Assembly: GCA_002449845.1 (NCBI GenBank)
Contig: DJXW01000019.1
Coordinates: 21,174-85,173, forward strand
Length of the DNA: 64,000 nt
Origin: Prevotella sp. UBA6994
GTDB lineage: Bacteria > Bacteroidota > Bacteroidia > Bacteroidales > Bacteroidaceae
Direction of reading: 5' to 3'
Made by a program: the position numbers and the translations under genes. Below are positions 1,012 through 59,528 of the stretch, one piece after another. The stretch's first letter is position 1. Each line of letters opens with the position of its first letter. The notes beneath the pieces are model-generated. The model was not told the DNA's origin. It did not search any database and saw only the letters and a program-made list of their open reading frames with translations.

Positions 1012-4000
1012 TTAGTGTTTGCCCTGACGAGTCCAGTGGAATACCAAATGCAGCATGACGTAATGGGGTAGCGATCGATAGCACGTCACGGTGCGTCCCA
1101 TGGCGTTGATCACGTACTGAGTGTCCGACAGCTGGTGCAACAGGTCGAACGCTTCGAGACGGGCTATGAGCTTGCCATTGAGGAACGGTTGACTCAGCGA
1201 GGCATTGACAATGAAGTCGTTGGTGTTGAGTTCTGTGCTGCCGTAGCGGCGGCCATACATCGTGGCATCTGCAGCCAGCGTCAGGCCACCGATTTTCGTA
1301 CCCCAAAGGGCAGGTGTAGTGTAGGTGGCTTCTAGGCCGTAGTGATAGTCGAGGGCACGGAGCGTGGTGAAATCATACATCTTGCCATCGCTGTGGCGCC
1401 AGTTGATGTAGCCCACGGCGCGGATGTTCAATGTCTTCCGGTGAAAGCGGATGTTGCCGCCGCTGTTCAACGAGAGGGTGTTCACGGTGTTCACCTGACT
1501 CGCCGCCATACCTGCCAGCATGGCGTGGTCCTTGGCATGATTCCAGTCGATGCCCGCATCGGCGTGCCACGTCCAGTAGCGCTTCGTGCCGATGCTATGG
1601 TCGGTGCTGAAATTGGCGTGGGCGTCGTAGGCACCGCTGACGTTCATGGGCTTAAAGGTGCTGACGCCCGTGGCGGGGTCGTAGGCCAGCGACTGTGCGA
1701 TGTCACGATGATGATAGCTGAACGAGGTTGAGGCGTGGTACATGCCACCAGCCACTTCCTTGCCATCGTAGTAGCTAATGCTTAGGTTCGTCTGTGCAGA
1801 GGGCTTTAGGTCGGGGTTGCCCAACTTCACCACGAGCGGACGGCTGTCGTCGCGATAGCTGATGCGATTCAGTATTTCGGCTGCTGTCTGGCGGTAGCTG
1901 ATGCGGACCTGCAGGTCGCGACGTGAGTCTTTCCACACGTTGCGATAGCGGAAGGAAGGATTGGGGAAGATGGCCGTCTGACGCGCCAGTGTGTCGAGGC
2001 TGCCACGCCGGTAGCGCAGTCTGTAGAAGTGCATGGGCACTTGCAGCTCTAAGCGCCAGCGATCGTAGTTCACTTTCATGTGAGCTATGCTATGGGTATA
2101 ATGACCCGTTTTGTTCAGGCTGAACGTCATGTCGTTCTGCTGGGTCGTGGCACAGCTCTCATAAGAGTTGGCTGGGTCCAGGGTGGCTGCGATGGCATCG
2201 ATCTCAGAAGGAAGGAGCGGGTCGGCAGGTTCAACTTCCCCCGTGGGACCGACCGTGGAGGCTGGGTGGTAGAGGTTGTCGCGGCTGTGGATGCGCAGAT
2301 AGGCCATGAGGTCGGAGATGCCGAAGTGCAGGTTGTGCCCCAGTTCCTTGCCGAAGCCCAGACTGAGGAGGGCTGCAGCATTGCGTGAGTACAGGCTGTT
2401 GGCATTGCGTGTCTCCACATCCGCCGGAGCCGTTGTTACCTTGTTACTTTGATACTTTGTTACTTTGTCACCTTGGTACCCTGTTACTTTGTTACCTTGG
2501 TACTTTGTTACTTTGAAAACTTCTCCTTGTTCGCCTTCGTCGTTGCTGAGGTCCAAATGGGTGTAGAAGTCGAGGTGCTGGTTGCGCCGCCCTACCCTGA
2601 CGCTGCCCTGGGCATCGAGGCTGGCTGCCCACTTGGTGCCACGGCTGATGCCTACGGTGCGCTGAGCGATGCTGAGCGTGTCGGTGGTTTCCTGAAAGGC
2701 CGAATGCGTGGCACCGTTGCGGCGTGTGTGGTTGAAATCGGCTTCGATGTTCATGTAGGTCGGCAACTTCAGCGTCAGACTGTTATGCAGCGACCAGCGG
2801 CGGTTGCCCATCTTGCTGAACGACTCGGTGAAAGCCGTTGGCGTAAGGGTGCCCACAAACCGCTCCTGGTGCTGGTTCATGGTCTGTGCGTCGGTGGTAG
2901 AGGTGTACTCGCCGCGCAGCGTCTCCTTCAGTTTGTCGCCTTCAGAGTGGTAGCTGAGTTCCGAAGCCGCACTGCGCGTGGTGATGATGGAGCGAGGCAT
3001 ACGCGCCGGACTCCATTGCCCCGTCTGACCGGCATGCCGCGTCTCGTTCACGTTGTTTGCATTGGCAAGCACGGTGAGCCGCAGCTTGTCGGTGAAGCCC
3101 AGCAAGAAGCCGCGCCCCAGATAAGCCCTCTCGGAAGGAGCCCCCTCCCTACTGGGGAGGGTCGGGGTGGGGCTCGCCGCTGCTTCCACGTTGGCAATGT
3201 AGCCTTGGCTATATTCGTCCTTCAGATTTACATCCATCACGTAGCGGCGCGGCTCTACATCGTAGCCCAAGGCTTCGCTCTTGTCGGTCTGCTTCTCGTA
3301 TACCTTCAGGTTTTTCACGGTGTAGTAAGGCAGGTTCTCCATCAGCACCTTCTTGTTTCCGCCGAAGAACGAGCGCGAGCCCAGCAGCAGCTCGTCGACC
3401 TTGCGCCCGTTGACGAAGATCTCGCCCTGGTCGTTCAGCGTCACGCCGGGCAGCTGGCGGATGAGGTCGTCGAGCATGGAACCCTCGGGCAGCTGGAAGG
3501 CCGTGGCATCGTAGACGAGGGTGTCGCCGCGATAGTAGAACTTCACGCGGGTGGCCGTCACTACCACTTCGTCGAGGTTCAGGTTACGCGTCTTGCGCAT
3601 CTGCAGCGTTCCCAGGTCGATGTCTTCGGTTGCCTGCCGACCTATCGACACCCGTTTCCACACGTCGTCATAGCCTTTGAGCTGAGCACGGACGAGATAG
3701 TCGCGCCCGGTCCTGACCTTGGTTCCGAAGTGGGCCTTGGTGATGCGGTTATCGCCGTTGAGGAAATAGATGATCTGCAGCGAGTCGGCAATGACGACCG
3801 AGTCGGCTGTGAGCACCGACACCTTCGCCTTAGTGAGGGGGCGCTTCAGGAAGCTGTCCTCCACATCGCCTGAGAGGTCGACAGTCTGCACCTTCGGCAC
3901 TTGCCGCTTCTTCATCTGCACGGCGATGTGGCGACCGCGCACCTTCACCTTCACGGGCAGCCCACGGCAGAGGCGCTTCACGGCATCGGGAGCCGAAAGC

Positions 4001-4194
4001 CCAGTGACCTTGGCCGTGGTGTGCAACCGGTCGAGCCCGTCGGAGAGAATGTCGATGGTGTATTCCGGCTGGCTGCGGCCGATGGTCTGCAGGGCGTCGA
4101 GCAACGGCACCTCGCGAAAGGTCTGTGCCACAGCGCTGCCGAGCGGGAGCAGCGACACGGCGAGCAGGAGGAGGAGGATTCTTGGTTGCTTCAT
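1012..4194 (-). CDS. Outer-membrane beta-barrel protein with N-terminal STN-like signalling domain, carboxypeptidase-regulatory-like domain and plug-like region (TonB-dependent-transducer-like), copy 2
   Basis: The track ORF 1012..4578 is trimmed to the ATG at 4192-4194 (MKQPRILLLLLAVSLLPLGSAVAQ signal peptide). This ATG overlaps the upstream stop as ATGA. Motifs: STN-like LLDALQTIGRSQPEYTIDILSDGL...GLPVKVKVRGRHIAV, and plug-like VKFYYRGDTLVYDATAFQLPEGSMLDDLIRQLPGVTL. It is a paralog of 4191..7394. Confidence 0.85.
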   Translation of the reverse strand: MKQPRILLLLLAVSLLPLGSAVAQTFREVPLLDALQTIGRSQPEYTIDILSDGLDRLHTTAKVTGLSAPDAVKRLCRGLPVKVKVRGRHIAVQMKKRQVPKVQTVDLSGDVEDSFLKRPLTKAKVSVLTADSVVIADSLQIIYFLNGDNRITKAHFGTKVRTGRDYLVRAQLKGYDDVWKRVSIGRQATEDIDLGTLQMRKTRNLNLDEVVVTATRVKFYYRGDTLVYDATAFQLPEGSMLDDLIRQLPGVTLNDQGEIFVNGRKVDELLLGSRSFFGGNKKVLMENLPYYTVKNLKVYEKQTDKSEALGYDVEPRRYVMDVNLKDEYSQGYIANVEAAASPTPTLPSREGAPSERAYLGRGFLLGFTDKLRLTVLANANNVNETRHAGQTGQWSPARMPRSIITTRSAASELSYHSEGDKLKETLRGEYTSTTDAQTMNQHQERFVGTLTPTAFTESFSKMGNRRWSLHNSLTLKLPTYMNIEADFNHTRRNGATHSAFQETTDTLSIAQRTVGISRGTKWAASLDAQGSVRVGRRNQHLDFYTHLDLSNDEGEQGEVFKVTKYQGNKVTGYQGDKVTKYQSNKVTTAPADVETRNANSLYSRNAAALLSLGFGKELGHNLHFGISDLMAYLRIHSRDNLYHPASTVGPTGEVEPADPLLPSEIDAIAATLDPANSYESCATTQQNDMTFSLNKTGHYTHSIAHMKVNYDRWRLELQVPMHFYRLRYRRGSLDTLARQTAIFPNPSFRYRNVWKDSRRDLQVRISYRQTAAEILNRISYRDDSRPLVVKLGNPDLKPSAQTNLSISYYDGKEVAGGMYHASTSFSYHHRDIAQSLAYDPATGVSTFKPMNVSGAYDAHANFSTDHSIGTKRYWTWHADAGIDWNHAKDHAMLAGMAASQVNTVNTLSLNSGGNIRFHRKTLNIRAVGYINWRHSDGKMYDFTTLRALDYHYGLEATYTTPALWGTKIGGLTLAADATMYGRRYGSTELNTNDFIVNASLSQPFLNGKLIARLEAFDLLHQLSDTQYVINAMGRTVTCYRSLPHYVMLHLVFHWTRQGKH
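2431..2514 (-). repeat. In-frame 24-bp tandem repeat (about 3.5 copies) inside the barrel gene
   Basis: Minus strand reads aaagtaacaaagtaccaaggtaac / aaagtaacagggtaccaaggtgac / aaagtaacaaagtatcaaagtaac / aaggtaacaacg, giving KVTKYQGN KVTGYQGD KVTKYQSN KVTT. Confidence 0.9.
3138..3175. repeat. GC-rich hairpin mini-element (CCCTCCC..GGGAGGG, GAGCCCC..GGGGCTC) inserted in frame
   Basis: CCCTCCC 3143-3149 pairs with GGGAGGG 3155-3161, and GAGCCCC 3138-3144 pairs with GGGGCTC 3169-3175. It encodes ...SPTPTLPSREGAPSE..., a segment absent at the aligned position of the paralog (which has GGGTGD there). Confidence 0.75.
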
Positions 4195-19420: not shown

Positions 19421-19460
19421 AAAAACCGATGGTTTCTATATGAGTGACCATCGGTTTCTT
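19421..19460. terminator. Bidirectional terminator hairpin between convergent tsaD and the PAP2 gene
   Basis: AAACCGATGGT (19423-19433) pairs with ACCATCGGTTT (19447-19457). It is A-rich upstream and T-rich downstream. A third ACCATCGGTT copy follows. Confidence 0.6.
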
Positions 19461-19527
19461 ATATGGTGACCATCGGTTCCTTGATATGGGAAAAACTGAG
19501 AACCTTATCAATAGGTCTTGCAAACCA

Positions 19528-23839: not shown

Positions 23840-25114
23840 ATGAAAACAGGTAAAGTGGATGTCTTGCTGGGATTGCAGTGGGGCGATGAAGGTAAAGGAA
23901 AGGTTGTGGATGTACTGACACCTCATTACGATGTGGTAGCTCGATTCCAGGGTGGTCCCAATGCAGGACATACATTGGAGTTTGAAGGTCAGAAATATGT
24001 GTTGAGAAGTATTCCCTCTGGAATATTCCAAGGTGGAAAGGTGAATATCATTGGCAATGGAGTGGTACTGGCACCTGACCTTTTCATGGCGGAGGCTCGT
24101 GATTTGGAGAAAAGTGGCCACGACTTGCGTTCACGTCTGCACATATCCAAGAAGGCTCACTTGATAATGCCCACTCATCGGGTGTTGGATGCTGCCATTG
24201 AAGCATCAAAGGGTAAGAGTAAGGTGGGTACCACTGGAAAGGGTATCGGTCCTACATACACCGACAAGATAAGCCGCAACGGTTTGAGGGTAGGGGATAT
24301 CCTTGAAAACTTTGACGAAAAATATGCTGCGCATAAAGCTCGCCATCTTGCCATGTTGAAGTCTATGAACTATACTGATTTCGACATTACCGAGGTGGAG
24401 AAGACTTGGATGGAAGGCATTGAATACATGAAACAGTTCCCCATCGTTGACAGCGAGCATGAGGTGAATGGCTTGTTGCGTGAAGGTAAGAGCATTCTTT
24501 GTGAAGGTGCGCAAGGCACGATGCTCGATATAGACTTTGGCAGTTATCCATTCGTCACATCCTCCAATACCATCTGCGCAGGTGCTTGCACGGGATTGGG
24601 CATTGGTCCGAACCGTATCGGAGAGGTGTTTGGTATCATGAAGGCTTATTGCACACGCGTTGGCGCAGGTCCTTTCCCAACGGAATTGTTTGACGAGACA
24701 GGCAAACGCATTCGCGACTTAGGTCATGAGTATGGTGCCGTGACGGGTCGTGAACGTCGTTGTGGATGGATAGACCTTGTGGCTCTGCGCTATTCTATCA
24801 TGGTGAATGGTGTCACGCAATTGATTATGATGAAGAGTGATGTGCTGGATGGATTCGACACCATCAAGGCTTGCGTGGCTTACGAGCATCAGGGAGAACG
24901 CATCGACTATTTCCCATATAATATTGAGGAAGACATCAAACCTGTGTATGTGGAAATGCCTGGATGGAAGACCGATATGAGCAAGATGACAAGCGAGGAG
25001 CAATTCCCGAAGGCATTTAGTGACTATGTGAAATTCTTGGAAGAGCAATTGGAAACTCCTATCACGATTATCTCTATTGGCCCTGACAGGGAGCAGACAA
25101 TTATTAGAAAATAA
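23840..25114 (+). CDS. purA: Adenylosuccinate synthase
   Basis: LGLQWGDEGKGKVVD P-loop, GPNAGHT, TTGKGIGPTY, GTTGRERRCGW-type block (AVTGRERRCGW). Confidence 0.96.
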   Translation: MKTGKVDVLLGLQWGDEGKGKVVDVLTPHYDVVARFQGGPNAGHTLEFEGQKYVLRSIPSGIFQGGKVNIIGNGVVLAPDLFMAEARDLEKSGHDLRSRLHISKKAHLIMPTHRVLDAAIEASKGKSKVGTTGKGIGPTYTDKISRNGLRVGDILENFDEKYAAHKARHLAMLKSMNYTDFDITEVEKTWMEGIEYMKQFPIVDSEHEVNGLLREGKSILCEGAQGTMLDIDFGSYPFVTSSNTICAGACTGLGIGPNRIGEVFGIMKAYCTRVGAGPFPTELFDETGKRIRDLGHEYGAVTGRERRCGWIDLVALRYSIMVNGVTQLIMMKSDVLDGFDTIKACVAYEHQGERIDYFPYNIEEDIKPVYVEMPGWKTDMSKMTSEEQFPKAFSDYVKFLEEQLETPITIISIGPDREQTIIRK

Positions 25115-25122
25115 TCGGAGGG

Positions 25123-25180
25123 CTCGGAGTTCTCAGAGTTCTCAGAGTCCTCAGAGTTCTCGGAGTTCTCAGAGTTCTCC
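25123..25180. repeat. 9-bp tandem repeat (CTCRGAGTY, 6 full copies) filling the purA-hisS spacer
   Basis: ctcggagtt ctcagagtt ctcagagtc ctcagagtt ctcggagtt ctcagagtt, read directly from the sequence. Confidence 0.95.
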
Positions 25181-25203: not shown

Positions 25204-26568
25204 ATGGCAAATAAACCCAGTATTCCCAAAGGAACAAGAGATTTTTCGCCAATAGAAATGGCGAAACGCAATTATATTTTCGATACCATCAAGGAAGTGT
25301 ATGCTCTCTATGGCTTTGAACAGATAGAGACACCTGCCATGGAAACGCTGCATACGTTGATGGGCAAGTATGGAGAAGAGGGAGATAAACTGCTCTTCAA
25401 AGTACTTAATTCTGGTGATTACATCAGTAAGGTTACTGATGAGGAATTGCAAGGGCGCAATTCCTTGAAATTGGCTACCAAGTTGTGCGAGAAGGGTTTG
25501 AGATATGATCTCACCGTTCCCTTTGCACGTTATGTGGTGATGCACCGTGAAGAACTTCAATTGCCTTTCAAGCGTTACCAAATTCAACCCGTGTGGCGTG
25601 CTGATCGTCCGCAAAAAGGACGTTATCGTGAGTTTTACCAGTGCGACGCTGACGTAGTGGGAAGCGACTCGTTGCTTAACGAAGTGGAGTTGATGCAGAT
25701 CATCGACACCGTGTTCACTAAGTTTGGCATTCGTGTGCAGATCAAGATCAACAATCGTAAAATCCTCACGGGTATTGCTGAGGTGATAGGTGAGGCGGAT
25801 AAGATTGTGGATATTACGGTGGCGATTGACAAGTTGGATAAGATTGGCATTGACAACGTGAATGCCGAACTGAGTGCCAACGGTATCAGCGATGAGGCGA
25901 TTGCCAAACTTCAACCTATCATCTCATTGAGTGGAACCAACGACCAAAAGCTGGATACCATTGCAGAGGTGTTGGCTACATCTGAAATTGGATTGAAAGG
26001 TGTTGAGGAAATCCGTTTCATCTTGAATATGCTCAAGTCGGCTGGCTTGAACAATGAGATTCAATTAGACTTGACCTTGGCTCGTGGTTTGAACTATTAC
26101 ACTGGTGCTATCTTTGAGGTGAAGGCTCTTGACACGCCGATGGGTAGTATAACGGGAGGTGGCCGATATGACAACCTGACGGGCATCTTCGGAATGCCAG
26201 GTTTGAGCGGAGTGGGCTTTAGCTTTGGTGCAGACCGTATTTATGACGTGCTGAACGCATTGGATTTGTATCCGAAGGAGACCATCCACGCCACACAAGT
26301 GTTGTTTATCAACTTCGGTGAAAAGGAAACGGCATTCTGTATCCCCTTGATTGCGCAGTTGCGTAAGGCAGGCATCAGAACGGAAATCTATCCTGATGCC
26401 GTGAAGATGAAAAAACAAATGAGCTACGCCAATGCCAAGCAGATTCCTTTCGTGGTATTGGTGGGCGAGAATGAAATGAGCACTGGCAAAGTGACGTTGA
26501 AAAACATGTCAACGGGAGAACAGATGCAAGTGGGTGTTGATGAAATTATCGAACAGGTATCTAAATAA
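25204..26568 (+). CDS. hisS: Histidine--tRNA ligase
   Basis: [52 protein letters not shown]. Class II HisRS motifs. Confidence 0.96.
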
Positions 26569-26575
26569 CATCATC

Positions 26576-27565
26576 ATGAAAAAGATAAGTGCGTTTTTTG
26601 TCGTGACGTTATTTTGCATGTTGCTTACGTCATCAACAAAGCAAATCACCATATTCATCATTGGTGATTCTACTGCTGCGAATAAATCGAATTACAAGAC
26701 CAATCCTGAAAGGGGATGGGGTATGGTGTTGCAAGGGTTTTATGATGCACGTATTCTGGTGGATAATCATGCTGTCAACGGACAGTCATCAAAGAGTTTT
26801 ATCGATGATGGACGATGGAAGAAGGTGATTGACAAGGTAAAGCCAGGCGACTACGTGTTTATCCAATTTGGGCACAATGACGAGAAACCCAATCCCAAAC
26901 GTCATACAGACCCTGGCTCAACGTTCGATGATAATCTGCGGAAGTTCTGTCGTGAAACCATGGCAAAGGGTGGACATCCTGTGTTGTTCAATGCCGTGGT
27001 TCGTAGGAACTTCATGCGCAAGGTTGACTCAACGGTTGAGGATGAATCGTTGCGTAGCGTGAAATATGGCGATGAGGAAGTCAATAGCGACACGTTGATA
27101 GATACGCATGGGGCTTATCTCTTCCCACCTAAGTATATTGCCAAGGAGTTAGGTGTGCCTTTCGTTGATGCAAACCGTGTGACTCACGATATCGAACAGG
27201 GAATGGGCATTGAGGGTTCTCGTAAATTGCACATGTGGCTGAAGCCTGGAGAGGTAGAGAGCATTCCAGATGGACGCAAAGACAATACGCATTATAATAT
27301 ATATGGTGCAAGGGTGGTAGCGGAGGCTTTGGCTAAGGCAATCGCTCAGGAAGTTCCTGCCTTGAAAAAATATATCATCCATTATGATTACGTGGTATCT
27401 GAGAAGGGAAAAGGCAATTATCTCACGTTGCAAGATGCCGTGAATGCTGCTCCTATGGGCAAGAAAACCAAGATATTGATATTAGACGGCACATGGGAGA
27501 AACCAGTGATTCCACAAGGAAAGAAAATTCGATTCAAGACTTTCCCAGAGGCGAAGGTTAAATAG
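26576..27565 (+). CDS. SGNH/GDSL hydrolase (rhamnogalacturonan acetylesterase-like) with a short pectinesterase-like C-terminal tail
   Basis: Start at the ATG at 26576 (MKKISAFFVVTLFCMLL). Motifs: IFIIGDSTA (block I), GWG, QFGHNDE (block III), DNTHYN (block V). Confidence 0.85.
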   Translation: MKKISAFFVVTLFCMLLTSSTKQITIFIIGDSTAANKSNYKTNPERGWGMVLQGFYDARILVDNHAVNGQSSKSFIDDGRWKKVIDKVKPGDYVFIQFGHNDEKPNPKRHTDPGSTFDDNLRKFCRETMAKGGHPVLFNAVVRRNFMRKVDSTVEDESLRSVKYGDEEVNSDTLIDTHGAYLFPPKYIAKELGVPFVDANRVTHDIEQGMGIEGSRKLHMWLKPGEVESIPDGRKDNTHYNIYGARVVAEALAKAIAQEVPALKKYIIHYDYVVSEKGKGNYLTLQDAVNAAPMGKKTKILILDGTWEKPVIPQGKKIRFKTFPEAKVK

Positions 27566-27606
27566 ATTGAGAATTGAAGATTGATAATTGAAGATTGAAG
27601 ATTTGG
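27565..27606. repeat. Heptanucleotide tandem array (RATTGAN x6)
   Basis: gattgag aattgaa gattgat aattgaa gattgaa gatttgg, beginning at the last base of the esterase stop codon. Confidence 0.9.
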
Positions 27607-27669
27607 GAGTTAAAACAATAGGTTGATGATTCACGAAACGAACCTACTGCTTTAACTCCTAAATTTTTT
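27605..27669 (+). terminator. Rho-independent terminator
   Basis: GGGAGTTAAA..TAGGTT / AACCTA..TTTAACTCC long stem followed by TAAATTTTTT. Confidence 0.6.
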
Positions 27670-27858
27670 GTTACTATATCCCTACAACTTGTGGTTGATG
27701 CGAAAAAACTGATTAACGAAATTTTTATTTGAACTATATGTCAAATGCGTAATTTAAGTTAATGAATTATAAAATTTAGAGGTAAAATCTTTGATTTGTT
27801 TTAATTTGTGTAAATTTACAAAATAAATCCAACATGTTTTACCTAACAATATAACTTT

Positions 27859-36650: not shown

Positions 36651-36720
36651 TCTCTTGTCTCTAGCTTCTTGCCTCTAGCTTCTTGCCTCTTGCTTCTTGC
36701 TTCTTATTATCTTGCTTCTA
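36651..36720. repeat. Heptanucleotide tandem array (CTTCTTG/CCTCTWG family, about 10 units)
   Basis: tctcttg tctctag cttcttg cctctag cttcttg cctcttg cttcttg cttctta ... Confidence 0.9.
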
Positions 36721-36752
36721 AATATGTCTTATAAATTCGCAATTTACCCCTT

Positions 36753-37086
36753 AAAATACGGGCATTTTTTCAACTGAGTTGGAACTCGGTCGAAAAAATG
36801 CCTGTATTTAGGTGGTTTGATAAACTATTCATTATCAGTCTTTTAGGAATTTTTGAGGTTTGTAATTTGAGTAAAAATTCATGTTTTTGCTTCAAAAAAG
36901 GCACTTTTTGGGCTTTCGTAACATATATAGTTAGCACTCGTAACATACATAGTTACGCTCATAACTCATATAGTTACGTGCGTAACATATTATGTTACGA
37001 TGAAAAACATGGTTTTTTGCCCGTTTTAACGCATTTTTCTGCTCTTACAATTCTATTTGGCAAGAAACTTCAAACATGTTTTTGTC
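36753..37086 (+). repeat. Noncoding repeat element, copy A (homologous to 51634-51946)
   Basis: Hand alignment to copy B. Shared parts are AAAATACGGGCATTTTTTCAA..GAGTT.GAACTC..AAAAATGC, TTCAAAAA.G..ACTTTTT, the GTAAC-N7-GTTAC palindrome array, TGAAAAACA, GCTCT..TTCT..GGCA..AAA.TTCAAACA..TTTTTGTC. ORFs are not conserved between copies. Confidence 0.85.
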
Positions 37087-37120
37087 GGAATAATTCTGAA
37101 TATATAATCGGCAAATCATA

Positions 37121-37176
37121 TCTCTTGCTTCATGCCTCCTGCTTCTTACCTCTTGCTTCTTACCTCTTGCTTCTCA
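37121..37176. repeat. Heptanucleotide tandem array (CTTCTTA/CCTCTTG family, 8 units) abutting the feoB stop codon
   Basis: tctcttg cttcatg cctcctg cttctta cctcttg cttctta cctcttg cttctca. Confidence 0.9.
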
Positions 37177-39726
37177 TCAATACCCCAACAACGAGCCGAT
37201 TTGGAAGACCGCTGCTGAAACTACCCAAGCAAGGAGGGTGGTATAGACGGCTGTGAAGGTAGCCCATTTCCATGAACCCGTTTCCCCCTTGATGGCTGCA
37301 ATGGTGGCAATGCAAGGGAAGTAGAGCAATACGAAGAGAAGGAAACAGAAGGCGGAGAGGGGAGTGATGCCATCTGCCATCATCTTCTTTCTGAGACTGG
37401 TGTATTTCGTATTGTCGTCACTGTATGAGTCGTCATCAGAAAAACTGTCATCGTCAGTATAGAGAACACCCAAGGTGGAAGCCACGATCTCCTTGGCACC
37501 GATACCAGAGATGAGACCCACGTCTAACTTCCAGTCGAATCCCTGCGGGCGGAACATGGGTTCTATTGCTTTTCCCAACTGTCCGATATAACTCTGTTCC
37601 TGTTGCTCCTGCGTGGATAGCTGGTCGTTGTGCGGGAAGTAACCCAATGCCCATACGATGATACTTGCCACAAGGATGATGCCTCCCATCTTCTTGAGGT
37701 ATTGCTTGCCTTTCTCCCACGTGTGGCGAAGCGTGGCTTTCCATGTGGGCAGACGATAGGGAGGAAGCTCCATGACAAAAGGCGTGTCTTCGCCCTTGAT
37801 GACAAACCGCGTGAAGATTCTGCTGACAATGACTGCCATGACGATACCGATAATATACAAGAGGAACATCACGTCTTGACGGTATTGCTTGGCGAAGAAT
37901 GTGCCGATAATCATGATGTAGATGGGCAGACGGGCGGAGCATGACATCATGGGCATGATGAGCATGGTAACGAGACGGGAGCGCCTGCTCTCGATGGTAC
38001 GTGTAGCCATGATGGCTGGCACGTTGCAGCCATATCCCATGATAAGGGGGATGAACGACTTGCCGTGCAGTCCCATCTTGTGCATGAGCTTATCCATGAT
38101 GAACGCCGCACGTGCCATGTAGCCGGAGTCTTCCATGAAGGAGATAAAGGCGTAAAGTATCAAAATCTGGGGCAGGAAGACAATCACAGCTCCCACACCA
38201 CCTATCACGCCGTTGACAAGCATCGCCTTGAGAGGTCCCTCTGGCATGGAGGCGCTCAGGAAGTTGCCTAACCACTCTACCCCTGCCTCTATCCAGTCCA
38301 TGGGATATTGACCGAGTGAGAATGTTACCTTAAACATCAGCCATATCAATGCCAAGAAGATGGGAAACCCTATGTAGCGGTTGGTGATAATCTTGTCCAA
38401 GATGTGAGTGGTCTTGTATGTGCCTTGGTTGTCTCCCTCTTCATATCCAGCCTCTTTCAATGCTCCACGGATGAAAGCGTACTTGGCATCCATGATGGCA
38501 GTCTCACTGTCGTCCTTGGTCTCCTTCATGATTTTCTTGGCAGCCTCATCGCGTACTGTAATGATTTGCTTGCCATTGGGGAGCGACTGCACCAATTGCT
38601 CCGTTTCCTTATCCATTTCAAGAAGTTTGATAGACAGGTAACGGGTGGAGTACTTATGTCTGATTTGTTCGTCGTTTTGCAATTCTTTCTTGATGCTCTC
38701 AATGCCCTCTTCCACGTACTTGCCGTGGTTGAGGTGGATGTGTCTGAACACGCTCTTGTTGGGACGGTTGCTGTGGGCGAAGTCTTCGCCATGATTGCCG
38801 CCGTGGTGGTTTTCATAGTTCTTGTGCCATTCCTGCAGGTCTTTTGCCACGTCGGGGTTGATGAATCCTTTGTCGTCGAGGAAGTCAACACCCTCGTAGA
38901 TGTTGATGATGATATGGAACAGCAAGTCCACGCCCCTTCCAGTCTTGAAAACGGTGGGTACCATGGGAACGCCGAAGAGCAATCCCAACGTGCCGATGTC
39001 GAACTTGTCGCCACGGTTCTCCACTTCGTCAAACATGTTGAGGGCACATACCACACGCAGGTTCATGTCAACCAGTTGGGTGGTGAGATAGAGGTTGCGT
39101 TCGAGGTTGCTGGCATCAATGACGTTGATGACAATATCAGGTGTTTTCTCAATGATTTGCTTGCGCACGTATAGCTCTTCGGGGGAATAGGCTGAGAGAG
39201 AATACGTACCAGGAAGGTCAACGAGATTGAAGCGGTAACCTTCAAATTCAGCAAAGCCCTCCTTGGCATCAACGGTAACGCCAGAGTAGTTGCCTACCCG
39301 TTCGTGCGCACCCGATGCGAAATTGAAGAGGGAGGTCTTTCCGCAATTGGGATTGCCGACAAGCGCCACGTTGATGATTCGGCGCTTGCGCATGGCAACG
39401 TCGTGCAACTGCTTTTCAGTGAGTGGTTGGTCATCGTTGTCGTCGGCGATGGTCAGGTCTTCGCTTTGCCTCTTTTCTTCAAGGCTCAACTTGCGTGCCT
39501 CTTCCTCTGAGATGATTTCAATCATCCCTGCCTCAGCCCTTCGGAGGCTCACCTCGTACCCCATGATTTTATATTTCACAGGGTCTTGGAGTGGAGCGTT
39601 GAGCAATACCTCCACCACCTTACCCTTGATGAAGCCCATTTCAACGATTCGTTTGCGGAATCCTCCATGTCCGAGCACCTTTACGATAACACCGCGCTCG
39701 CCTGTGTGTAAGTCTGAAAGTCTCAT
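37177..39726 (-). CDS. feoB: Ferrous iron transporter, FeoA-FeoB fusion
   Basis: N-terminal FeoA/SH3-like LSDLHTGERGVIVKVLG...GFIKGKVVEVL, G domain VALVGNPNCGKTSLFN and DLPGTYSL, and a polytopic membrane domain. Confidence 0.95.
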   Translation of the reverse strand: MRLSDLHTGERGVIVKVLGHGGFRKRIVEMGFIKGKVVEVLLNAPLQDPVKYKIMGYEVSLRRAEAGMIEIISEEEARKLSLEEKRQSEDLTIADDNDDQPLTEKQLHDVAMRKRRIINVALVGNPNCGKTSLFNFASGAHERVGNYSGVTVDAKEGFAEFEGYRFNLVDLPGTYSLSAYSPEELYVRKQIIEKTPDIVINVIDASNLERNLYLTTQLVDMNLRVVCALNMFDEVENRGDKFDIGTLGLLFGVPMVPTVFKTGRGVDLLFHIIINIYEGVDFLDDKGFINPDVAKDLQEWHKNYENHHGGNHGEDFAHSNRPNKSVFRHIHLNHGKYVEEGIESIKKELQNDEQIRHKYSTRYLSIKLLEMDKETEQLVQSLPNGKQIITVRDEAAKKIMKETKDDSETAIMDAKYAFIRGALKEAGYEEGDNQGTYKTTHILDKIITNRYIGFPIFLALIWLMFKVTFSLGQYPMDWIEAGVEWLGNFLSASMPEGPLKAMLVNGVIGGVGAVIVFLPQILILYAFISFMEDSGYMARAAFIMDKLMHKMGLHGKSFIPLIMGYGCNVPAIMATRTIESRRSRLVTMLIMPMMSCSARLPIYIMIIGTFFAKQYRQDVMFLLYIIGIVMAVIVSRIFTRFVIKGEDTPFVMELPPYRLPTWKATLRHTWEKGKQYLKKMGGIILVASIIVWALGYFPHNDQLSTQEQQEQSYIGQLGKAIEPMFRPQGFDWKLDVGLISGIGAKEIVASTLGVLYTDDDSFSDDDSYSDDNTKYTSLRKKMMADGITPLSAFCFLLFVLLYFPCIATIAAIKGETGSWKWATFTAVYTTLLAWVVSAAVFQIGSLLGY

Positions 39727-39812
39727 ATTACGTTCTTTTCTGCGAAATTACACATTTTTCCCCGTATTCGGGCTGCAAAAGGTGTTATATTTCACAAAAT
39801 ACCTAAAAATGG

Positions 39813-39946
39813 GGATGTTTTAGTGTTGAATGTTTAGTGTTGAGTGTTTAGTGTTGAATGTTGAGTGTTTAGTGTTGAATGTTTAGTGTTTAGTGTTGAG
39901 TGTTTAGTGTTGAGTGTTGAATGTTGAATGTTTAGTGTTGAGCGTT
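39813..39946. repeat. Heptanucleotide tandem array (KARTGTT, about 19 units) between feoAB and uvrA
   Basis: ggatgtt tagtgtt gaatgtt tagtgtt gagtgtt ... tagtgtt gagcgtt. The last two units encode the final uvrA residues (NAQH) and the stop codon. Confidence 0.95.
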
Positions 39947-42772
39947 TAGTTCTTCCTTCAAGAAACGAGGGGTGTAACCCTTATCAGATAGAGCTACCTC
40001 TTCTGGTGTGCCCTTGGAAAGAAGTGTACCACCGTTTCGTCCTCCCTCTGGTCCCATGTCGATGATGTAATCAGCCAGTTTGATGACATCTAAATTGTGC
40101 TCGATGATGACCACGGTGTTGCCCTTGTCAACCAGTCGCTGGAGTACAGCCATCAGGTTCTTGATGTCATCAAAGTGCAGTCCTGTGGTAGGTTCGTCAA
40201 GGATATAGAGCGTCTTGCCTGTGTCCTTCTTCGACAGTTCGGTGGCGAGCTTGACACGTTGGCTTTCGCCACCGCTCAGCGTGGTAGAGGGTTGTCCCAG
40301 TTTGATGTATCCCAATCCTACGTCTTGAATCGTCTTGATCTTATGCAAGATGTGAGGCACGTTCTCGAAAAACTCCACGGCTTGGTTGATGGTCATGTCA
40401 AGTACATCTGCAATCGACTTACCCTTAAACCTTACCTCCAAGGTCTCACGGTTGTAACGCTTGCCGTGACACACTTCGCATGGCACCATTACATCGGGAA
40501 GGAAATTCATCTCGATGGTCTTGTAGCCGTTGCCGCTACAACTCTCACACCTGCCTCCCTTTACGTTGAACGAGAATCGTCCAGGCTTGTAACCTCTAAT
40601 CTTGGCTTCGGGCAGGTTGACGAACATCGAGCGAATGTCGCTGAATACACCCGTGTATGTGGCTGGATTGGAACGGGGCGTTCTGCCCAACGGACTCTGG
40701 TCCACGTTGACCACCTTGTCTATATATTCTATGCCTTCGATGCTGTCGTAAGGCATGGGTTTCTTCAACGAACGATAGAACTTCTGTGAGAGAATGGGTT
40801 GTAGCGTTTCGTTCACCAATGTTGACTTACCAGAGCCGGAAACGCCCGTAACTACAATGAGCTTGCCTAACGGAAACTCTACGTCCACGTTTTTCAGGTT
40901 GTTTCCCCTGGCACCATGAATCCAGATAGACTTCCCATTGCCTTTGCGTCGTTCTTGAGGAACCTCTATCTTCTCTTTGCCATTGAGAAACCTTGCGGTC
41001 AGTGTGTTGATGTCGTTGTTCATGATGTCTTCAGGCTTTCCCTGAAACACAACCTCACCACCTTTTCTTCCAGCCCGTGGTCCGATATCAACGAGGTAAT
41101 CGGAATGAAGCATCATGTCTTTATCGTGCTCTACCACGATGACCGTGTTGCCCATGTCACGCAATTGCTTGAGTGAGGAGATGAGACGTTGGTTGTCGCG
41201 TTGGTGCAATCCGATGGATGGTTCGTCTAATATATACAGCACATTGACCAATTGGGAACCGATTTGCGTAGCCAATCGTATGCGTTGGCTCTCACCACCC
41301 GACAAACTGGCAGACTGGCGATTGAGGGTGAGATAGTCTAATCCCACCTCTAACAGGAACTCCACGCGAGAGCGCAATTCCTTGACAATCTCATGGGCAA
41401 TCTTCTGTTGCATGGGTTCCATGTGCTCCTCTACATGCATCAGCCAATCGCGAAGGTCAGTGATGTCGAGGTTGGCAACCTCAGAGATGTTCTTGTCCCA
41501 TATACGATAGGAGAGAGATTCTCTTTTCAACCTCGCCCCATGACATTCGGGACAGGTGCAGACAGCCAAGAATTGATCTGCCCATTTCTGCCCGGCAGAA
41601 GAATCGTCGTTGTCCATCACGTTGCGGAGATACTTGATCACTCCGTCGAAGGCAATGAAATAGTCGCTTGAGGTATGTACCAATTCCTTGTTGATACGCA
41701 CGTTCTCCAAGGAGCCATACAAAATCTCATCCATTGCCTCTTGGGGAATGTCCTTCACGGGAGTATGTAAGTCGCATTCGTACTTTTGGAGGATAGCGTC
41801 TATTTGCCAGAATATCATCTGGTTCTTGTATCTTCCCAAAGGGATGATGGCACCTTTGTGAATGCTTTGCTTGCTGTCAGGGATGACCTTCTCCATGTCT
41901 ATCTCATTGATGACACCCAATCCCTTGCATTTGGGACAAGCCCCTTCGGGAGAGTTGAACGAGAAGATGTTTGGGGCAGGCTCACCGTAGGAAAGACCAG
42001 TGATGGGATCCATGAGGCGTTTGGAGAAGTTGCGCACACTTTCCGTGTCCTTATCCATGATCATGATGATTCCATCACCTTGTTTCATTGCCACTTGAAC
42101 GCTTTTCTTCAGCCGCTCATCGTCCTTGCCTTGTACCTTTAACTTATCGATAACCACTTCGATGTTGTGGTTTTTGTAACGGTCAACCTTCATTCCCCTG
42201 GTAATCTCTACCACCTGTCCGTCAACACGCATATATAAGTAGCCTTTTCTGCGCATACTCTCGAAGAGCTCACGGTAATGTCCTTTGCGTTGCCTCACCA
42301 AAGGAGCGAGAATGAAGATGGGCTTGTCGATATAATGGGTGAGAATCATTTCCAATACCTGTTCCTCAGTGTATTTCACCATTTTCTCACCCGTCATGTA
42401 ACTGTAAGCCGTACCAGCACGTGCGTAGAGCAAGCGCAGATAGTCGTAGATTTCTGTCGTGGTGCCTACGGTGGAGCGTGGGTTTTTGTTGGTAGTCTTC
42501 TGCTCGATGCTGATGACAGGACTCAACCCCGTAATCTTATCCACGTCGGGTCGTTGCAATCCTCCTAAGAAGTTGCGGGCGTATGCAGAGAATGTCTCGA
42601 TGTATCTTCGTTGACCTTCGGCAAAGATGGTGTCGAAAGCCAATGATGACTTACCCGAACCAGATAGTCCGGTGATGACAGTCAGGGAATTGCGCGGAAT
42701 CTCTACGTCGATGTTCTTGAGGTTATGAACGCGTGCTCCCCAAACATTAATCTTCTCGTCTTCTCTTTGCAT
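39932..42772 (-). CDS. uvrA: Excinuclease ABC subunit A
   Basis: Start at the ATG at 42772 ([28 protein letters not shown]). Two ABC modules ([28 protein letters not shown] twice) and zinc modules (CPKCKG, CPECHG, CESCSG..CEVCHG). Confidence 0.95.
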
Positions 42773-42797
42773 GGTGGTTGGTGGTGAGGTCAGTATA

Positions 42798-43529
42798 TTA
42801 TGGAGTGGTAGTGTTGTTGTTTTCCTTCTCAATGAATCCACGCAAGAGGTTCACGTCAGTCTTGATGTTGAATTTTCTACCATCAGCCCCTCTTGCCTTC
42901 ACGAGGCAGAAATAAACACCATCTTTCACGGGCTTACCTTTATACGTGCCATCCCATTCGCCAGAAGGGTCGTGCCACTCATAGAGCTTCTGTCCCCAAC
43001 GATTGAAGATATAAGCATGAAACTCCACGATAGATTTGTACCCCTCCTTGGCGCGGTAGGTGTTGTTGTATTGGTCATTGTTGGGTGAGAATGCGTTAGG
43101 CATTTCCAGTTTGCTCTCGTAAATGGAAATGTTGAAAGGTAGAACTCCTGGGTTTTCAGACCAATATACCTTGTCGTATTTCACGGTATCCGTGCCGTTG
43201 ATGAAAGTAGCATAGAGCGTGATACGGTGAGCGCCAGCCGTAGTGAAGGTGTATTCCGTTTCTTCCTCATACCTGACAAGGTAAGGAGTGTCCTCTTGTC
43301 CTTCTGTATAGAAACGCCATTCGTATGTGGCATTGTAATCGCCCACGTTAGAAGGGTTAGCTGCAAAATGTCCAGTAACGGGCGCAGAGAATGAAGAACC
43401 CTCATCTGTTTTTTCAGCTGTCTCATCATAGGTGGCAGTAGGATTGACAGACGGAACTCCTTGTGCGTGAATGGCAATGCTTGTCAATATGAATACCAAA
43501 AGAGTATAGATATTATTTGCTTTCATCAT
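42798..43529 (-). CDS. Secreted protein with T9SS type B (gliding-motility-associated) C-terminal sorting domain
   Basis: Start at the ATG at 43529 (MMKANNIYTLLVFILTSIAIHAQG). C-terminus PNAFSPNNDQYNNTY...YIFNRWGQKLYEW..GEWDGTYKGKPVKDGVYFCLV. Confidence 0.8.
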   Translation of the reverse strand: MMKANNIYTLLVFILTSIAIHAQGVPSVNPTATYDETAEKTDEGSSFSAPVTGHFAANPSNVGDYNATYEWRFYTEGQEDTPYLVRYEEETEYTFTTAGAHRITLYATFINGTDTVKYDKVYWSENPGVLPFNISIYESKLEMPNAFSPNNDQYNNTYRAKEGYKSIVEFHAYIFNRWGQKLYEWHDPSGEWDGTYKGKPVKDGVYFCLVKARGADGRKFNIKTDVNLLRGFIEKENNNTTTP

Positions 43530-43618
43530 TATAAGTAGAATGGGGTTAGTTGATAAAACAAATCGCAAGATGAAAATACTTTCACTTGCGACTTGATTCT
43601 TTTTTTTACTTTCCTTTG

Positions 43619-43691
43619 TACACCCTTAGGGATTCGAACCCTAGACCCACTGATTAAGAGTCAGTTGCTCTACCAACTGAGCTAAGGGTGC
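43619..43691 (-). tRNA. tRNA-Lys (anticodon CTT)
   Basis: Reverse complement GCACCCTTAGCTCAGTTGGTAGAGCAACTGACTCTTAATCAGTGGGTCTAGGGTTCGAATCCCTAAGGGTGTA folds as a cloverleaf with anticodon loop CT-CTT-AA and T-loop GGTTCGAATCC. A TACCTTTG box lies upstream. Confidence 0.93.
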
Positions 43692-48113: not shown

Positions 48114-48869
48114 TTAGTTTTCTGCTAACTGTTTTTTCCATTTATAATATCCGGCAATGGCGATGATGACATAAAGCCCATAGAGTGAAGCCTTGAACGG
48201 AATGTCTTTGTAGAAATACAACACGCACGTTACTACATCAACGACAATCCAGATAAGCCATTGCTCCAAATACTTACGCGCCAACGCCCAAATGCCCACC
48301 ATGCTCAATGCCGTGGTAAAGCTGTCGGCGATGGGTACGCGTGAGTCGGTGTAAGTAACCAATAACCACCAGATGGTTGCCCAAATGGCAAGTGTGCCTA
48401 TCGTCCACGGTAAGATATACTTTCGCTCAAAGTGAGTGCATTTGAAGGATGAATTAGGATGGTCGATGGTTGAAGTTGTCGCTGAAGGCGAGGGTTGATG
48501 TTCGATGGTTGAATTACGATGTTCGATGGTTGAATTTGGAAGTGTTTCGCTTGTCAGCGAGGACGAAGTTGTGAGGGAAGATGTACTTCCATCCTGCGGC
48601 TCAGCCGCACCCCTTCCTCCTTCGTAATTCTTCCTTCCTCCTTCAAAAAACTTCCACATGATGAAGCCATAGAAGGACATTCCGAGATAGTAGAACTCCA
48701 TGCCGCAGTCGGCATAGAGTCCTTTTTGGTAACAGAGTACGATTCCCAAGGATTCCATCAGGATTCCCACCAACCACAACCAGATGCTTGCCTTGTATTC
48801 CAGGATGATATAGACAAGTCCTAAGACTGTGGTGGTGATGTCAAGCCAATATTCTCGTAGAAAGTCCAT
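48114..48869 (-). CDS. pnuT: PnuC-family transporter, thiamine-type (PnuT-like), carrying a repeat-encoded loop insertion
   Basis: PnuC-like TM pattern (GLVYIILEYKASIWLWLVGIL..., WIVVDVVTCVLYFYKD). It lies downstream of a TPP-riboswitch-controlled TonB-dependent receptor. Confidence 0.8.
   Translation of the reverse strand: MDFLREYWLDITTTVLGLVYIILEYKASIWLWLVGILMESLGIVLCYQKGLYADCGMEFYYLGMSFYGFIMWKFFEGGRKNYEGGRGAAEPQDGSTSSLTTSSSLTSETLPNSTIEHRNSTIEHQPSPSATTSTIDHPNSSFKCTHFERKYILPWTIGTLAIWATIWWLLVTYTDSRVPIADSFTTALSMVGIWALARKYLEQWLIWIVVDVVTCVLYFYKDIPFKASLYGLYVIIAIAGYYKWKKQLAEN
48451..48630. repeat. 180-bp copy of the same palindromic element, in frame in pnuT
   Basis: Ends GAATTAGGATGG / CCTTCGTAATTC (10 of 12 complementary). 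Shared blocks GAAGTTGTCGCTGAAGGCGAGG and GAAGTTGTGAGGGAAGATGTACTTCC. The internal 21-bp unit gttcgatggttgaattacgat is repeated. Confidence 0.85.
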
Positions 48870-51310: not shown

Positions 51311-51379
51311 GAAACCTTATTTTATAAGATTCGCAAGATGGCTTGCGAAAACTAATGATACAATAAGGGGGAGAGAAAG

Positions 51380-51465
51380 AATAAATTCCTACGCAGGCAT
51401 TACCCTGTTCAGGTTTGAGGGTCTAATCTCAGCCCGCCAACAAGCGAGCACCCCTTAACTTACCG
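51380..51465 (-). promoter_or_regulatory. TPP (THI-box) riboswitch
   Basis: Minus strand: GGGGTGCTCGCTTGTTGGCGGGCTGAGATTAGACCCTCAAACCTGAACAGGGTAATGCCTGCGTAGGAA. It carries the conserved CUGAGA, ACCUGA, UAAUGCC and GCGUAGGAA blocks. The downstream hairpin TTCGCAAG-ccat-CTTGCGAA (51330-51349) is a possible expression platform. Confidence 0.88.
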
Positions 51466-58644: not shown

Positions 58645-59406
58645 ATGATTAATACTGTTATTATAGAAGACGACGACAACGACTTGAAAGAATTGGTGAA
58701 GAGTCTGTCGCAATATCCGCAAATCAAAATCGTAAGCACTTGTAACAGTGGGGAGAAAGGGCTTGCTGCCATGACCAAGTTCGACCCCGACTTGCTGTTT
58801 CTTGACATTGAGATGCCGGGAATGTCGGGTATGGAGTTCTTGGAAAACTTGGGCGCAAATATCTTCAACAAATGTCGTGTGGTCATTTACACGGCTTTTG
58901 CCCATTATGCCGTGGAGTCTTTTCGCAGACATGCGTTCGATTACCTCACTAAACCTATCGACAACCAAGAACTTGATGAAATCATTCGCAGAGTAGAAAG
59001 CTCGTTGGATAATCCCATTGGAGGTGAGGAAGGAAGCGTTGCCCGTGCGGAGAAAGAACTCATACTGCTTTTTGAAGGGAATGAGTTGATGGTGCTGAGG
59101 TTACGTGATATTGCTTACTTTCAATACGACGGCAAGGAGAGAGTGTGGACTGCTTACTTCGCAAATCATTCGGATGACAAAGCAATAGATTGCTGTAACT
59201 TGAAACATACGGTATTGGCATCAGACATCTTGCGATTGTCAACGCAGTTCGTACAGGTACACAGAAAGTATATCGTGAATATCTTTTACATCAAGTCGGT
59301 GAGAAACGGTGTCTGCTCATTCTATCCTCCCTTTGAAAATATAGAGGGTATTAACGTGAGCTATAAGTATCGAAGACGATTATTGGAGCAGTTTGCGAAT
59401 ATATGA
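58645..59406 (+). CDS. LytTR-family response regulator
   Basis: REC domain (IIEDDDND...DLLFLDIEMPGMSG...VIYTAF) and a C-terminal LytTR domain (FVQVHRKYIVNIFYIKSV). Confidence 0.9.
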   Translation: MINTVIIEDDDNDLKELVKSLSQYPQIKIVSTCNSGEKGLAAMTKFDPDLLFLDIEMPGMSGMEFLENLGANIFNKCRVVIYTAFAHYAVESFRRHAFDYLTKPIDNQELDEIIRRVESSLDNPIGGEEGSVARAEKELILLFEGNELMVLRLRDIAYFQYDGKERVWTAYFANHSDDKAIDCCNLKHTVLASDILRLSTQFVQVHRKYIVNIFYIKSVRNGVCSFYPPFENIEGINVSYKYRRRLLEQFANI

Positions 59407-59407
59407 T

Positions 59408-59484
59408 AGAAGCAAGAAGCAGGAAGCAGGAAGCAAGAGATTAGAGGTGAGGGGTGAGGGGTGAGAGGTGAGGAGTGAGTGGTG
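59408..59484. repeat. Heptanucleotide tandem array (AGAAGCA family switching to AGGGGTG family, 11 units)
   Basis: agaagca agaagca ggaagca ggaagca agagatt agaggtg aggggtg aggggtg agaggtg aggagtg agtggtg. The first family is the reverse complement of the arrays at 36651 and 37121. Confidence 0.95.
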
Positions 59485-59490
59485 AGATAT

Positions 59491-59528
59491 AAAAAAACGA
59501 GGGCATTGTTCTTGCCCTCGTCTTTTTT
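59491..59528. terminator. Bidirectional rho-independent terminator
   Basis: AAAAAAA-CGAGGGCA-ttgttct-TGCCCTCG-TCTTTTTT between the convergent regulator gene and lpxA. Confidence 0.75.

Follow-up and report, generated by a model that had tools for sequence, protein, structure and literature searches.

Why should a long run of tandem heptanucleotides separate uvrA from feoAB in a Prevotella genome, and does either gene depend on it? We address this question for Prevotella sp. UBA6994 (GenBank assembly GCA_002449845.1), in which such an array lies at the junction of uvrA and feoAB, a FeoA-FeoB fusion gene, within the 64,000 nucleotides (nt) of contig DJXW01000019.1 that were analyzed (positions 21,174 to 85,173, forward strand; hereafter, the window, to which coordinates refer unless another locus, designated by an L number, is named). 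The original prediction, made from the letters of the window alone, took the array for a slippage-prone repeat that both closes uvrA and fills much of the feoAB promoter. Comparison with conspecific assemblies shows that the array is a hypervariable variable-number tandem repeat (VNTR), missing from the sister species, the edges of which coincide with conserved sequence on both sides. The explanation that we favor, and consider reasonably probable, is that of a slippage-driven heptanucleotide VNTR in unconstrained DNA between the last important residue of UvrA and the conserved motif upstream of feoAB.

Results

The array supplies the end of uvrA

Both genes have the minus strand as their sense strand, and read in that direction the junction holds 18 clean AACAYTM heptamers (Table 1) of the types AACACTA, AACACTC and AACATTC, along with one AACGCTC. 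Units 1-9 are AACGCTC AACACTA AACATTC AACATTC AACACTC AACACTA AACACTC AACACTA AACACTA, and units 10-18 are AACATTC AACACTA AACACTC AACATTC AACACTA AACACTC AACACTA AACATTC AACACTA; GAAGAACTA precedes unit 1, and AAA followed by CATCCCC comes after unit 18. Nineteen units had been counted at 39813-39946, of which 18 stand, the nineteenth (39813-39820) being degenerate and already overlapping the conserved motif upstream of feoAB. Tandem Repeats Finder (TRF) describes the array with period 7, 18.4 copies and a score of 160. As had been claimed, the last uvrA codons and the stop are array-encoded: the 3' end reads CTA AAC GCT CAA CAC TAA (LNAQH*), with the TAA at 39934-39932, inside unit 2. The feoAB ATG lies 86 nt from the array end at 39813 and 94 nt from the last clean unit.

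Because TAA recurs at the CTA|AAC unit junctions in all three frames, where the longest open stretches are 13, 20 and 41 codons, slippage would never extend UvrA by much. The 137 nt of the array stretch contain 66 A, 45 C, 25 T and a single G, and the RNA is predicted to be wholly unpaired. No intrinsic terminator (hairpin plus U-run) was found on the minus strand between 39727 and 39960, and the array region showed no similarity to deposited phage genomes. A plus-strand open reading frame (ORF), 39290..39823, that ends in the array was rejected as spurious: it runs antisense to the FeoA domain, and what closes it is simply the first TAG of the array. An Rfam scan of the window yielded, at the gathering threshold, only a tRNA gene (43619-43691, minus strand) and a thiamine pyrophosphate (TPP) riboswitch (51368-51465, minus strand) upstream of a TonB-dependent receptor/nicotinamide mononucleotide (NMN) transporter gene pair, both elsewhere than the array.

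Array length varies in whole units among conspecific strains

Among species-representative genomes, FeoAB identity reaches at most 77%, and the top matches all belong to Prevotellaceae; in the protein database, FeoAB sequences at 99-100% identity carry the label 'MAG: Prevotella sp.' (metagenome-assembled genome) and come from ruminant gut samples, with the next clusters at 92% and 85%. Assemblies with FeoAB 99-100% identical to that of the window were taken as the conspecific set, and five of their loci, aligned to the window, are about 97% identical at the DNA level.

Across these assemblies, the uvrA-feoAB array occurs in eight alleles of 7 to 23 units that always differ by whole units: 7 units (ten assemblies, L082-L091, all with one FeoAB allele), 11 units (L093), 14 units (L476, L477), 14' units (L481), 15 units (L475), 15' units (L479, L480), 18 units (the window and L081) and 23 units (L092, L094). 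The window allele equals the L479 allele plus one 21-nt block of three units, and in L092 a 21-nt higher-order block (AACACTA AACACTC AACTCTA) is present four times. These whole-unit and 21-nt block differences point to replication slippage as the generator, in agreement with the slippage that had been proposed. All eight alleles begin directly at GAAGAACTA|AAC, and unit 1 is either AACGCTC or AACATTC, so that UvrA ends in ..ELNAQH* or ..ELNIQH*; the anticipated change of the UvrA C-terminus is thus real and depends on the first unit. L081 (GCA_001684375.1, AUXO015100112.1) is a 6757-nt contig identical at 6757/6757 positions to window 36920-43675 and therefore represents the same strain in a second public assembly.

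Other arrays of the window behave in keeping with this. The AGAAGCA-type array downstream of feoAB ranges from about 7.5 to 14 units across conspecific strains with constant boundaries, starting at TGATG|AGAAGCA and ending at AAGAGATATG. The array at 27564, only 5.7 units long, does not differ in copy number between the window and strain L093, as expected if longer arrays slip more often.

The array is absent from sister species

In the relatives with 85% identical FeoAB (L216-L219), UvrA ends in ..EELHL* and is followed by 17 nt and then CATCATCATTTGTAGGTATTTTG (CATCATCATTTGTAGG); in the 92% relative, L095, the UvrA end is ..ELGL*, and 41 nt (GCTATCAAACCAACATCAAAACCCAAAAATCACGTTCTTTT) separate it from ATCCCCATTTTTAGGTATTTTG (ATCCCCATTTTTAGG). 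No array was found at the uvrA-feoAB junction of either, only the spacer of 17-41 nt, and the UvrA C-termini in relatives are ..EELHL*, ..ELGL* or ..ELEL*. By comparison with these array-free loci, the array took the place of the final two codons of uvrA, its former stop codon and the spacer, and it is apparently a recent, lineage-specific gain within this Prevotella species. The A/C-rich, weakly 7-periodic spacer of L095, with its proto-repeat ATCAAACCAACATCAAAACCC, is a plausible seed.

The array ends where the feoAB upstream module begins

Most Prevotellaceae feoAB loci share a module composed of the motif CATCAYCATTTnTAGGTATTTT and, about 45 nt downstream, a TAnnTTTG-type box (TACTTTTG, TAACTTTG, TAATTTTG and similar in related loci) that lies 16-35 nt before the ATG. 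Motif and box occur whatever gene is upstream, and several species have just 0-20 nt between the motif and the stop of that gene. The box fits the -7 consensus of Bacteroidetes promoters, TAnnTTTG, and its counterpart in the window (Table 1) is the probable feoAB promoter. The module is near-constant in all eight alleles: the window differs from the other strains at one base. The array is preceded by uvrA coding sequence only; with no promoter element on that side, the length of the array cannot change promoter spacing. Judged by these conserved positions, the array lies outside the putative promoter module and stops where the module begins, and the original prediction's placing of the array over much of the feoAB promoter, along with its claim that slippage changes the promoter spacing, had to be abandoned.

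Motif and box are found at matching positions in L001, L002, L006, L007, L009, L010, L013 and L023, as well as in L047, L095 and L216-L220, and an inverted repeat, TTGCAA..TTGCAA, often lies between them. The motif is a candidate site for an iron-responsive regulator.

Heptamer arrays recur at gene ends in the window

TRF reports six period-7 rows with a score of at least 40 in the window, compared with one row in total over 100 dinucleotide-preserving shuffles. All five arrays that had been noted at gene ends exist, a sixth is added at 59443-59487, and the number of unit families, put earlier at three or more, comes to four: AACAYTM, AGAAGCA/AGAGGYA, GGTGAGG and AGATTGA (Table 1). The 27564 array continues straight into a terminator-like hairpin with a U-run (about 27593-27670, z = -4.9).

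Table 1. Positions in the window of the uvrA-feoAB junction and of the other tandem arrays.
Feature	Position	Strand	Remarks
Heptamer array	39821..39946	-	18 clean AACAYTM units; 39813-39946 if the degenerate unit is counted
uvrA	39932..42841	-	Pfam UvrA_inter and UvrA_DNA-bind; last five codons and stop array-encoded
feoAB, FeoA-FeoB fusion gene	37177..39726	-	ORF and domain matches
Conserved feoAB upstream motif CATCCCCATTTTTAGGTATTTTG	39795..39817	-	Starts 3 nt past the last clean unit
-7-like box TAATTTCG	39743..39750	-	About 45 nt downstream of the motif, 16 nt before the ATG
AGAAGCA/AGAGGTA-type array	37122..37174	-	Starts 2 nt after the feoAB TGA
Second AGAAGCA-type array	36652..36705	-	About 420 nt further downstream; ends AAGAGATATG; length-variable between strains
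AGATTGA/GAATTGA array	27564..27603	+	Begins inside the TAG of ORF 26540..27565
AGAAGCA x4.4	59408..59438	+	Starts 1 nt after the TGA of ORF 58645..59406
GGTGAGG x5.9	59443..59487	+	Ends 9 nt before the terminator hairpin 59497-59521
Period-9 array CTCAGAGTT x6.3	25123..25179	+	Non-coding; position comparable to the heptamer arrays: 8 nt past the ORF 23840..25114 stop and 24 nt short of the following ATG

Several further repeats were observed around these arrays. Between the two direct AGAAGCA-type arrays downstream of feoAB, both of which end in AAGAGATATG, a segment of about 420 nt (36705-37122) contains four palindromic 19-mers (CGTAACATAATATGTTACG-like) spaced 21 bp apart (36916-36999); these look like a tandem operator array for a dimeric regulator, and at the corresponding place L095 has GTAAA-N9-TTTAC palindromes beside a (TTGTTAA)4 array. 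In L082 (about 13055-13478; also in L083-L091), an insertion of about 420 nt, absent from the window, stands beside the second AGAAGCA array and resembles a miniature inverted-repeat transposable element (MITE), with 21-nt terminal inverted repeats, 63-nt internal inverted arms and its own ATTCATA-type heptamer run; Rfam returned nothing for the feoAB-downstream region of L082, this insertion included. Coding repeats form a separate set. CTTCCTC-type period-7/period-21 repeats lie inside two ORFs (45938-45966 and 48612-48655), in segments with near-identical flanks gaggacgaagttgtgagggaagatgtacttcc that fall outside the stop-anchored class, and a period-8/24 repeat, TTGTTACT x10, at 2433-2515 inside the large ORF 1012..4194 (minus strand) is presumably an 8-residue coding repeat.

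Stop anchoring across Prevotellaceae

To place these arrays among relatives, the window and 80 related loci, 1.47 Mb of Prevotellaceae DNA altogether, were surveyed with TRF, which found 38 period-7 arrays, of which four only overlap coding sequence. Stop anchoring was counted over the intergenic arrays of period 7, 8 or 10 with both flanks available (n = 35): 16 of them lie within 5 nt of the stop of the adjacent gene, whereas placing arrays at random in these gaps gives 9%. Three further arrays overlap the gene end by 13-21 nt, and the remainder are mostly the second array of two-array sets. Of the 19 stop-anchored arrays, 16 have a sense strand rich in G and poor in C, the unit of which usually carries TGA, TAA or TAG. 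At convergent gene pairs in L011 and L003, the arrays are inverted, each adjoining the stop of its own gene, and in L056 (17632-17721) a (TAACTCA)13 array fills a 99-nt intercistronic gap from 5 nt past the stop to 3 nt before the ATG. Replication strand was considered as the cause of array orientation and ruled out because neighboring arrays of the window on the same gene strand have opposite G/C skew.

L056 also provides a case at the other end of feoAB: FeoAB ends in ..GRLIV* inside an 18-unit GTTGAGT/GTTTAGT array (12523-12647), which may have grown from the native feoAB 3' end (TTGGTTATATAA in L003). Tandem arrays with a 22-bp period are a class apart from the heptamers, as they are not stop-anchored; 32 occur in the same 1.47 Mb, 31 of them intergenic, each with a different unit (for example, L003 15270-15453, L009 12620-12745, L024 9278-9416, L077 1564-1672 and, in the window, 19431-19489).

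The KARTGTT/AACAYTM family in metagenomes and phages

A metagenome scan for at least four AACAYTM units returned at least 120 loci, on contigs of 23-68% GC among the matches listed. Arrays abutting a long ORF, again among the matches listed, have KARTGTT as the sense strand in 73 unique cases versus AACAYTM in 11, an inflated count, as the KARTGTT strand is rich in stops and closes any frame, spurious ones included; a hand count of those matches limited to ORFs of at least 150 amino acids gave roughly 45 versus 5. The uvrA array therefore has the minority orientation of its family. Many of the array-abutting proteins in these matches have array-encoded ends of the form ..EC*, ..NVEC* or ..LNVEC*. 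In viral contigs, the family gave at least 120 matches, and three permuted heptamers of matched composition gave 57, 27 and 50.

In human-gut phage contigs, the family takes the form of an intergenic element that recurs between many genes and consists of a stop, (KARTGTT)n, a conserved core of 37-38 nt and (AACAYTM)m. These elements fold as long perfect hairpins with an unpaired A/C-rich tail, and many of them have in common the core GAATTAGGCTAGCGCCnTTGAGTCCGTTAGGC(T)AATTC. Of the inverted pairs among the metagenome and viral matches listed, all 41 begin with the G/T-rich arm and none has the opposite order. For the L300 element, the predicted folding energy is -58.6 kcal/mol (z = -13.4), with a long unpaired (AACAUUC)n tail. 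Neither the core, at up to 3 mismatches, nor the G/T-rich arm was found in the window, where the A/C-rich array stands alone, and L001-L095 contain no exact match to the core.

Examples of the phage elements are L300 2532-2680, L287 1777-1900 and 10649-10773, L259 11979-12104 and L274 1761-1892, with some 25 more; the contigs come from IMG/VR 3300045988_*, and 45% of L300 matches GenBank MT835636 at 95.5%. A mobile element of about 1.1 kb between phage arrays was entertained and dismissed, the segments being different, orthologous phage genes and not copies; a PHROGs search of these segments gave one weak tail-protein match only.

Discussion

Comparison with described repeats

The uvrA-feoAB array has the features of a heptanucleotide simple sequence repeat (SSR) or VNTR, namely copies beyond chance, whole-unit differences between strains and a stop-proximal location. 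Among better-known repeats, the mycobacterial interspersed repetitive unit (MIRU) VNTRs have units of 40-100 bp with small ORFs for translational coupling; the array resembles them as an intergenic tandem repeat that overlaps the upstream stop, is polymorphic among strains and is usable for typing, and differs in its 7-nt unit. The short tandemly repeated repetitive (STRR) elements of cyanobacteria, to which the array had been likened, reportedly have the units CCCCA(A/G)T, TT(G/T)GTCA and CAACAGT in the account of Mazel et al. from 1990. The behavior of the array bears the likeness out, as both consist of intergenic tandem 7-bp units with several families per genome, sometimes in hairpin-forming inverted sets; the AACAYTM unit is not among the STRR units as reported, and the host is Prevotella as opposed to heterocystous cyanobacteria. 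STRR sequences can form intergenic hairpins, and a role in transcript stability or translational coupling has been proposed for them (PMC2670836).

Heptameric SSRs reportedly occur in excess in many bacteria, and polymerase slippage has been put forward to explain this (Mrazek et al. 2007, cited by way of PMC4692102). Two such classes, GGGAATC in Xanthomonas and GGGGA(C/T)T in Nostoc, show a strong stop-codon bias with the G-rich strand coding, vary in length and sequence between close relatives, include inverted pairs and have no function found (PMC4692102). The Prevotella arrays share with them the 7-nt unit, the non-coding bias, the stop-proximal or overlapping position, inverted pairs, variability and the lack of a gene-function theme; unlike them, they occur in rumen Prevotella, their units form neither G-tracts nor G-quadruplexes (G4), several families coexist, and the uvrA array has an A/C-rich sense strand in place of a G-rich one. 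TAACTGA arrays are known from Beggiatoaceae, Cyanobacteria and five Bacteroidetes, including Paludibacter of the Bacteroidales, with strain differences in 7-nt steps and close relatives that lack the array at the same locus (PMC4679880), so that the original prediction, which knew of no equivalent described in Bacteroidales, is not supported on this point. Our literature search found no description of heptamer arrays in Prevotella. The uvrA array matches the TAACTGA arrays in being an intergenic heptamer repeat of a Bacteroidetes genome with 7-nt strain steps and array-free close relatives, and the L056 (TAACTCA)13 unit is one base from TAACTGA; the Beggiatoaceae arrays are forward-oriented and lie just upstream of starts, whereas the uvrA array is stop-anchored, about 90 nt before the start, and has another unit.

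A proposed neutral repeat between two selective walls

Under the explanation that we favor, the array would have arisen within this Prevotella species in place of the uvrA end and a short spacer, with whole units or blocks of units gained and lost through slipped-strand mispairing in replication. Expansion, contraction and boundary deletion would erode the unique flanks until selection halts the erosion, and the array would come to fill all the DNA between two walls, the last UvrA residue that matters and the first base of the feoAB module. Erosion of this kind would produce flush stop anchoring, overlap of the last codons and a bias toward the stop-carrying orientation of the unit. The array would be neutral and tolerated because it has stops in all frames and no promoter partner upstream, and because neither gene needs its sequence. 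The same wall-to-wall layout recurs at 27564 and at 59408/59443 (stop to terminator), at L056 17632 (stop to start) and between the convergent genes of L011 and L003 (stop to stop), which supports this explanation; the array is probably an ordinary bacterial microsatellite that fills spare DNA harmlessly.

Several observations weigh against so simple a picture. Loss of the array was seen in 0 of 8 conspecific alleles, every one of which retains at least 7 units. The wide GC range of the contigs and the excess in viral contigs hint that the unit sequence is favored and did not come from random seeds, and the phage hairpin copies suggest that relatives of the uvrA array can be useful. Simple duplication alone leaves the flush position at the stop unexplained, the erosion step being one that we infer. 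Finally, short-read assemblies are the source of every copy number, and one of the contigs, L478, ends within the array.

Alternative explanations

This last point leads to the possibility that assembly errors account for the array or for its variation in length, given that short-read assemblers may collapse or break repeats. We find this extremely improbable: the window allele was recovered identically in the independent L081 assembly, the 7-unit allele in 10 assemblies and the 23-, 15'- and 14-unit alleles in 2 each, the mixed unit order can anchor assembly, and the alleles differ by internally consistent unit patterns. If the variation is real, its place upstream of feoAB would invite comparison with contingency loci. 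SSR-based promoter switches are well known in bacteria, and phase-variable SSRs lie in the promoters or reading frames of Haemophilus and Neisseria genes; slipped-strand change of unit number at a gene boundary, here spacing the feoAB promoter or shifting the uvrA frame, could likewise switch expression. Such a switch is highly improbable at this locus. The motif and the -7-like box, as mapped by conservation, would lie downstream of the array and differ by one base among alleles, so that the array would not sit between promoter elements; no second element lies upstream, and the array-free sister species carry the same module. The uvrA frame closes within the first two units, only the second residue of the tail varying (A or I), so there is no functional frame shift; ten independent assemblies with one FeoAB allele all have 7 units, unlike rapid on/off flipping; and the neighbors are housekeeping genes, not surface antigens. 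A role for the units as tandem binding sites for a DNA- or RNA-binding protein (S1/Csp-type or a nucleoid protein) that tunes translation, stability or DNA structure would explain why unit families recur at unrelated loci (the window has three AGAAGCA arrays, and KARTGTT is found there as well as in L056 and many metagenomes) and why the family exceeds the permuted controls in viral contigs (at least 120 versus 57, 27 and 50), and a similar proposal was made for TAACTGA repeats (PMC4679880). With at least four unrelated unit families in one 64-kb window, unconserved copy number, array-free close relatives, functionally unrelated adjacent genes and no candidate binder, we regard it as very unlikely.

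Two explanations take up the strand of the array. Sites at which Rho loads (rut, Rho utilization) are C-rich, G-poor and unstructured over some 70-80 nt, and by base composition and predicted folding the array has this character downstream of a stop: 126 nt of unstructured, C-rich, G-free RNA follow directly on the end of uvrA (45 C versus 1 G in 137 nt), with no intrinsic terminator before feoAB. As a rut-like stretch, the array could end uvrA transcription ahead of an iron-regulated feoAB promoter and insulate the two genes, a minimum length being sufficient, in keeping with the 7 or more units in all eight alleles. We consider this rather unlikely, as the sister species manage with a 17-41 nt spacer, the 7-unit allele measures just about 49 nt, and most stop-anchored arrays have a G-rich, C-poor sense strand (73/84 among the metagenome matches listed, with the inflation described above). 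As a G-rich sense strand cannot act as a rut site, any Rho role would be a by-product specific to the minority orientation of the uvrA array. The other explanation treats the array as a decayed or half hairpin element, whether related to repetitive extragenic palindromic (REP) sequences or MITEs or serving to stabilize or process transcripts, of which only the 3' A/C-rich arm was left or acquired. The 41 inverted pairs among the matches listed, all with the G/T-rich arm first and many with a common core, speak for it, as do inverted array pairs of other unit families after stops in L011, L032, L040, L050 and L003. The window, however, has neither the G/T-rich arm nor the core, the Prevotellaceae loci have no exact core match, all eight alleles start at GAAGAACTA|AAC, and the sister spacer ATCAAACCAACATCAAAACCC allows growth in place, making this quite unlikely; if it were true, there would be a widespread, uncharacterized element common to phages and bacteria. 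A wider, speculative view, which we also rate as rather improbable, goes further: stop-anchored heptamer arrays would be orientation-specific 3'-end elements common to many phyla and to phages, the full form being a long hairpin that always has the stop-rich G/T strand as its 5' arm, and the uvrA array would be a lone 3' arm with a G-free tail that perhaps loads Rho or insulates. Elements of this sort might propagate, or be favored by selection, as modules for transcript ends, processing or recombination.

Implications

Returning to the neutral, slippage-driven VNTR as the preferred explanation, the array is not to be read as a regulatory switch of feoAB, and annotation pipelines should expect a repeat-encoded, strain-variable UvrA C-terminus. 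Arrays of this type are a likely cause of contig breaks, and they are also high-resolution strain markers for rumen and gut Prevotella, with eight alleles at one locus in genomes that are about 97% identical. Stop anchoring would have a simple selective account: units that carry stops erode into gene ends harmlessly and end up wall-to-wall. The uvrA-feoAB array works like the heptanucleotide VNTRs described elsewhere, and Prevotellaceae can be added to Xanthomonas, cyanobacteria and Beggiatoaceae in the list of groups with stop-anchored heptamer arrays.

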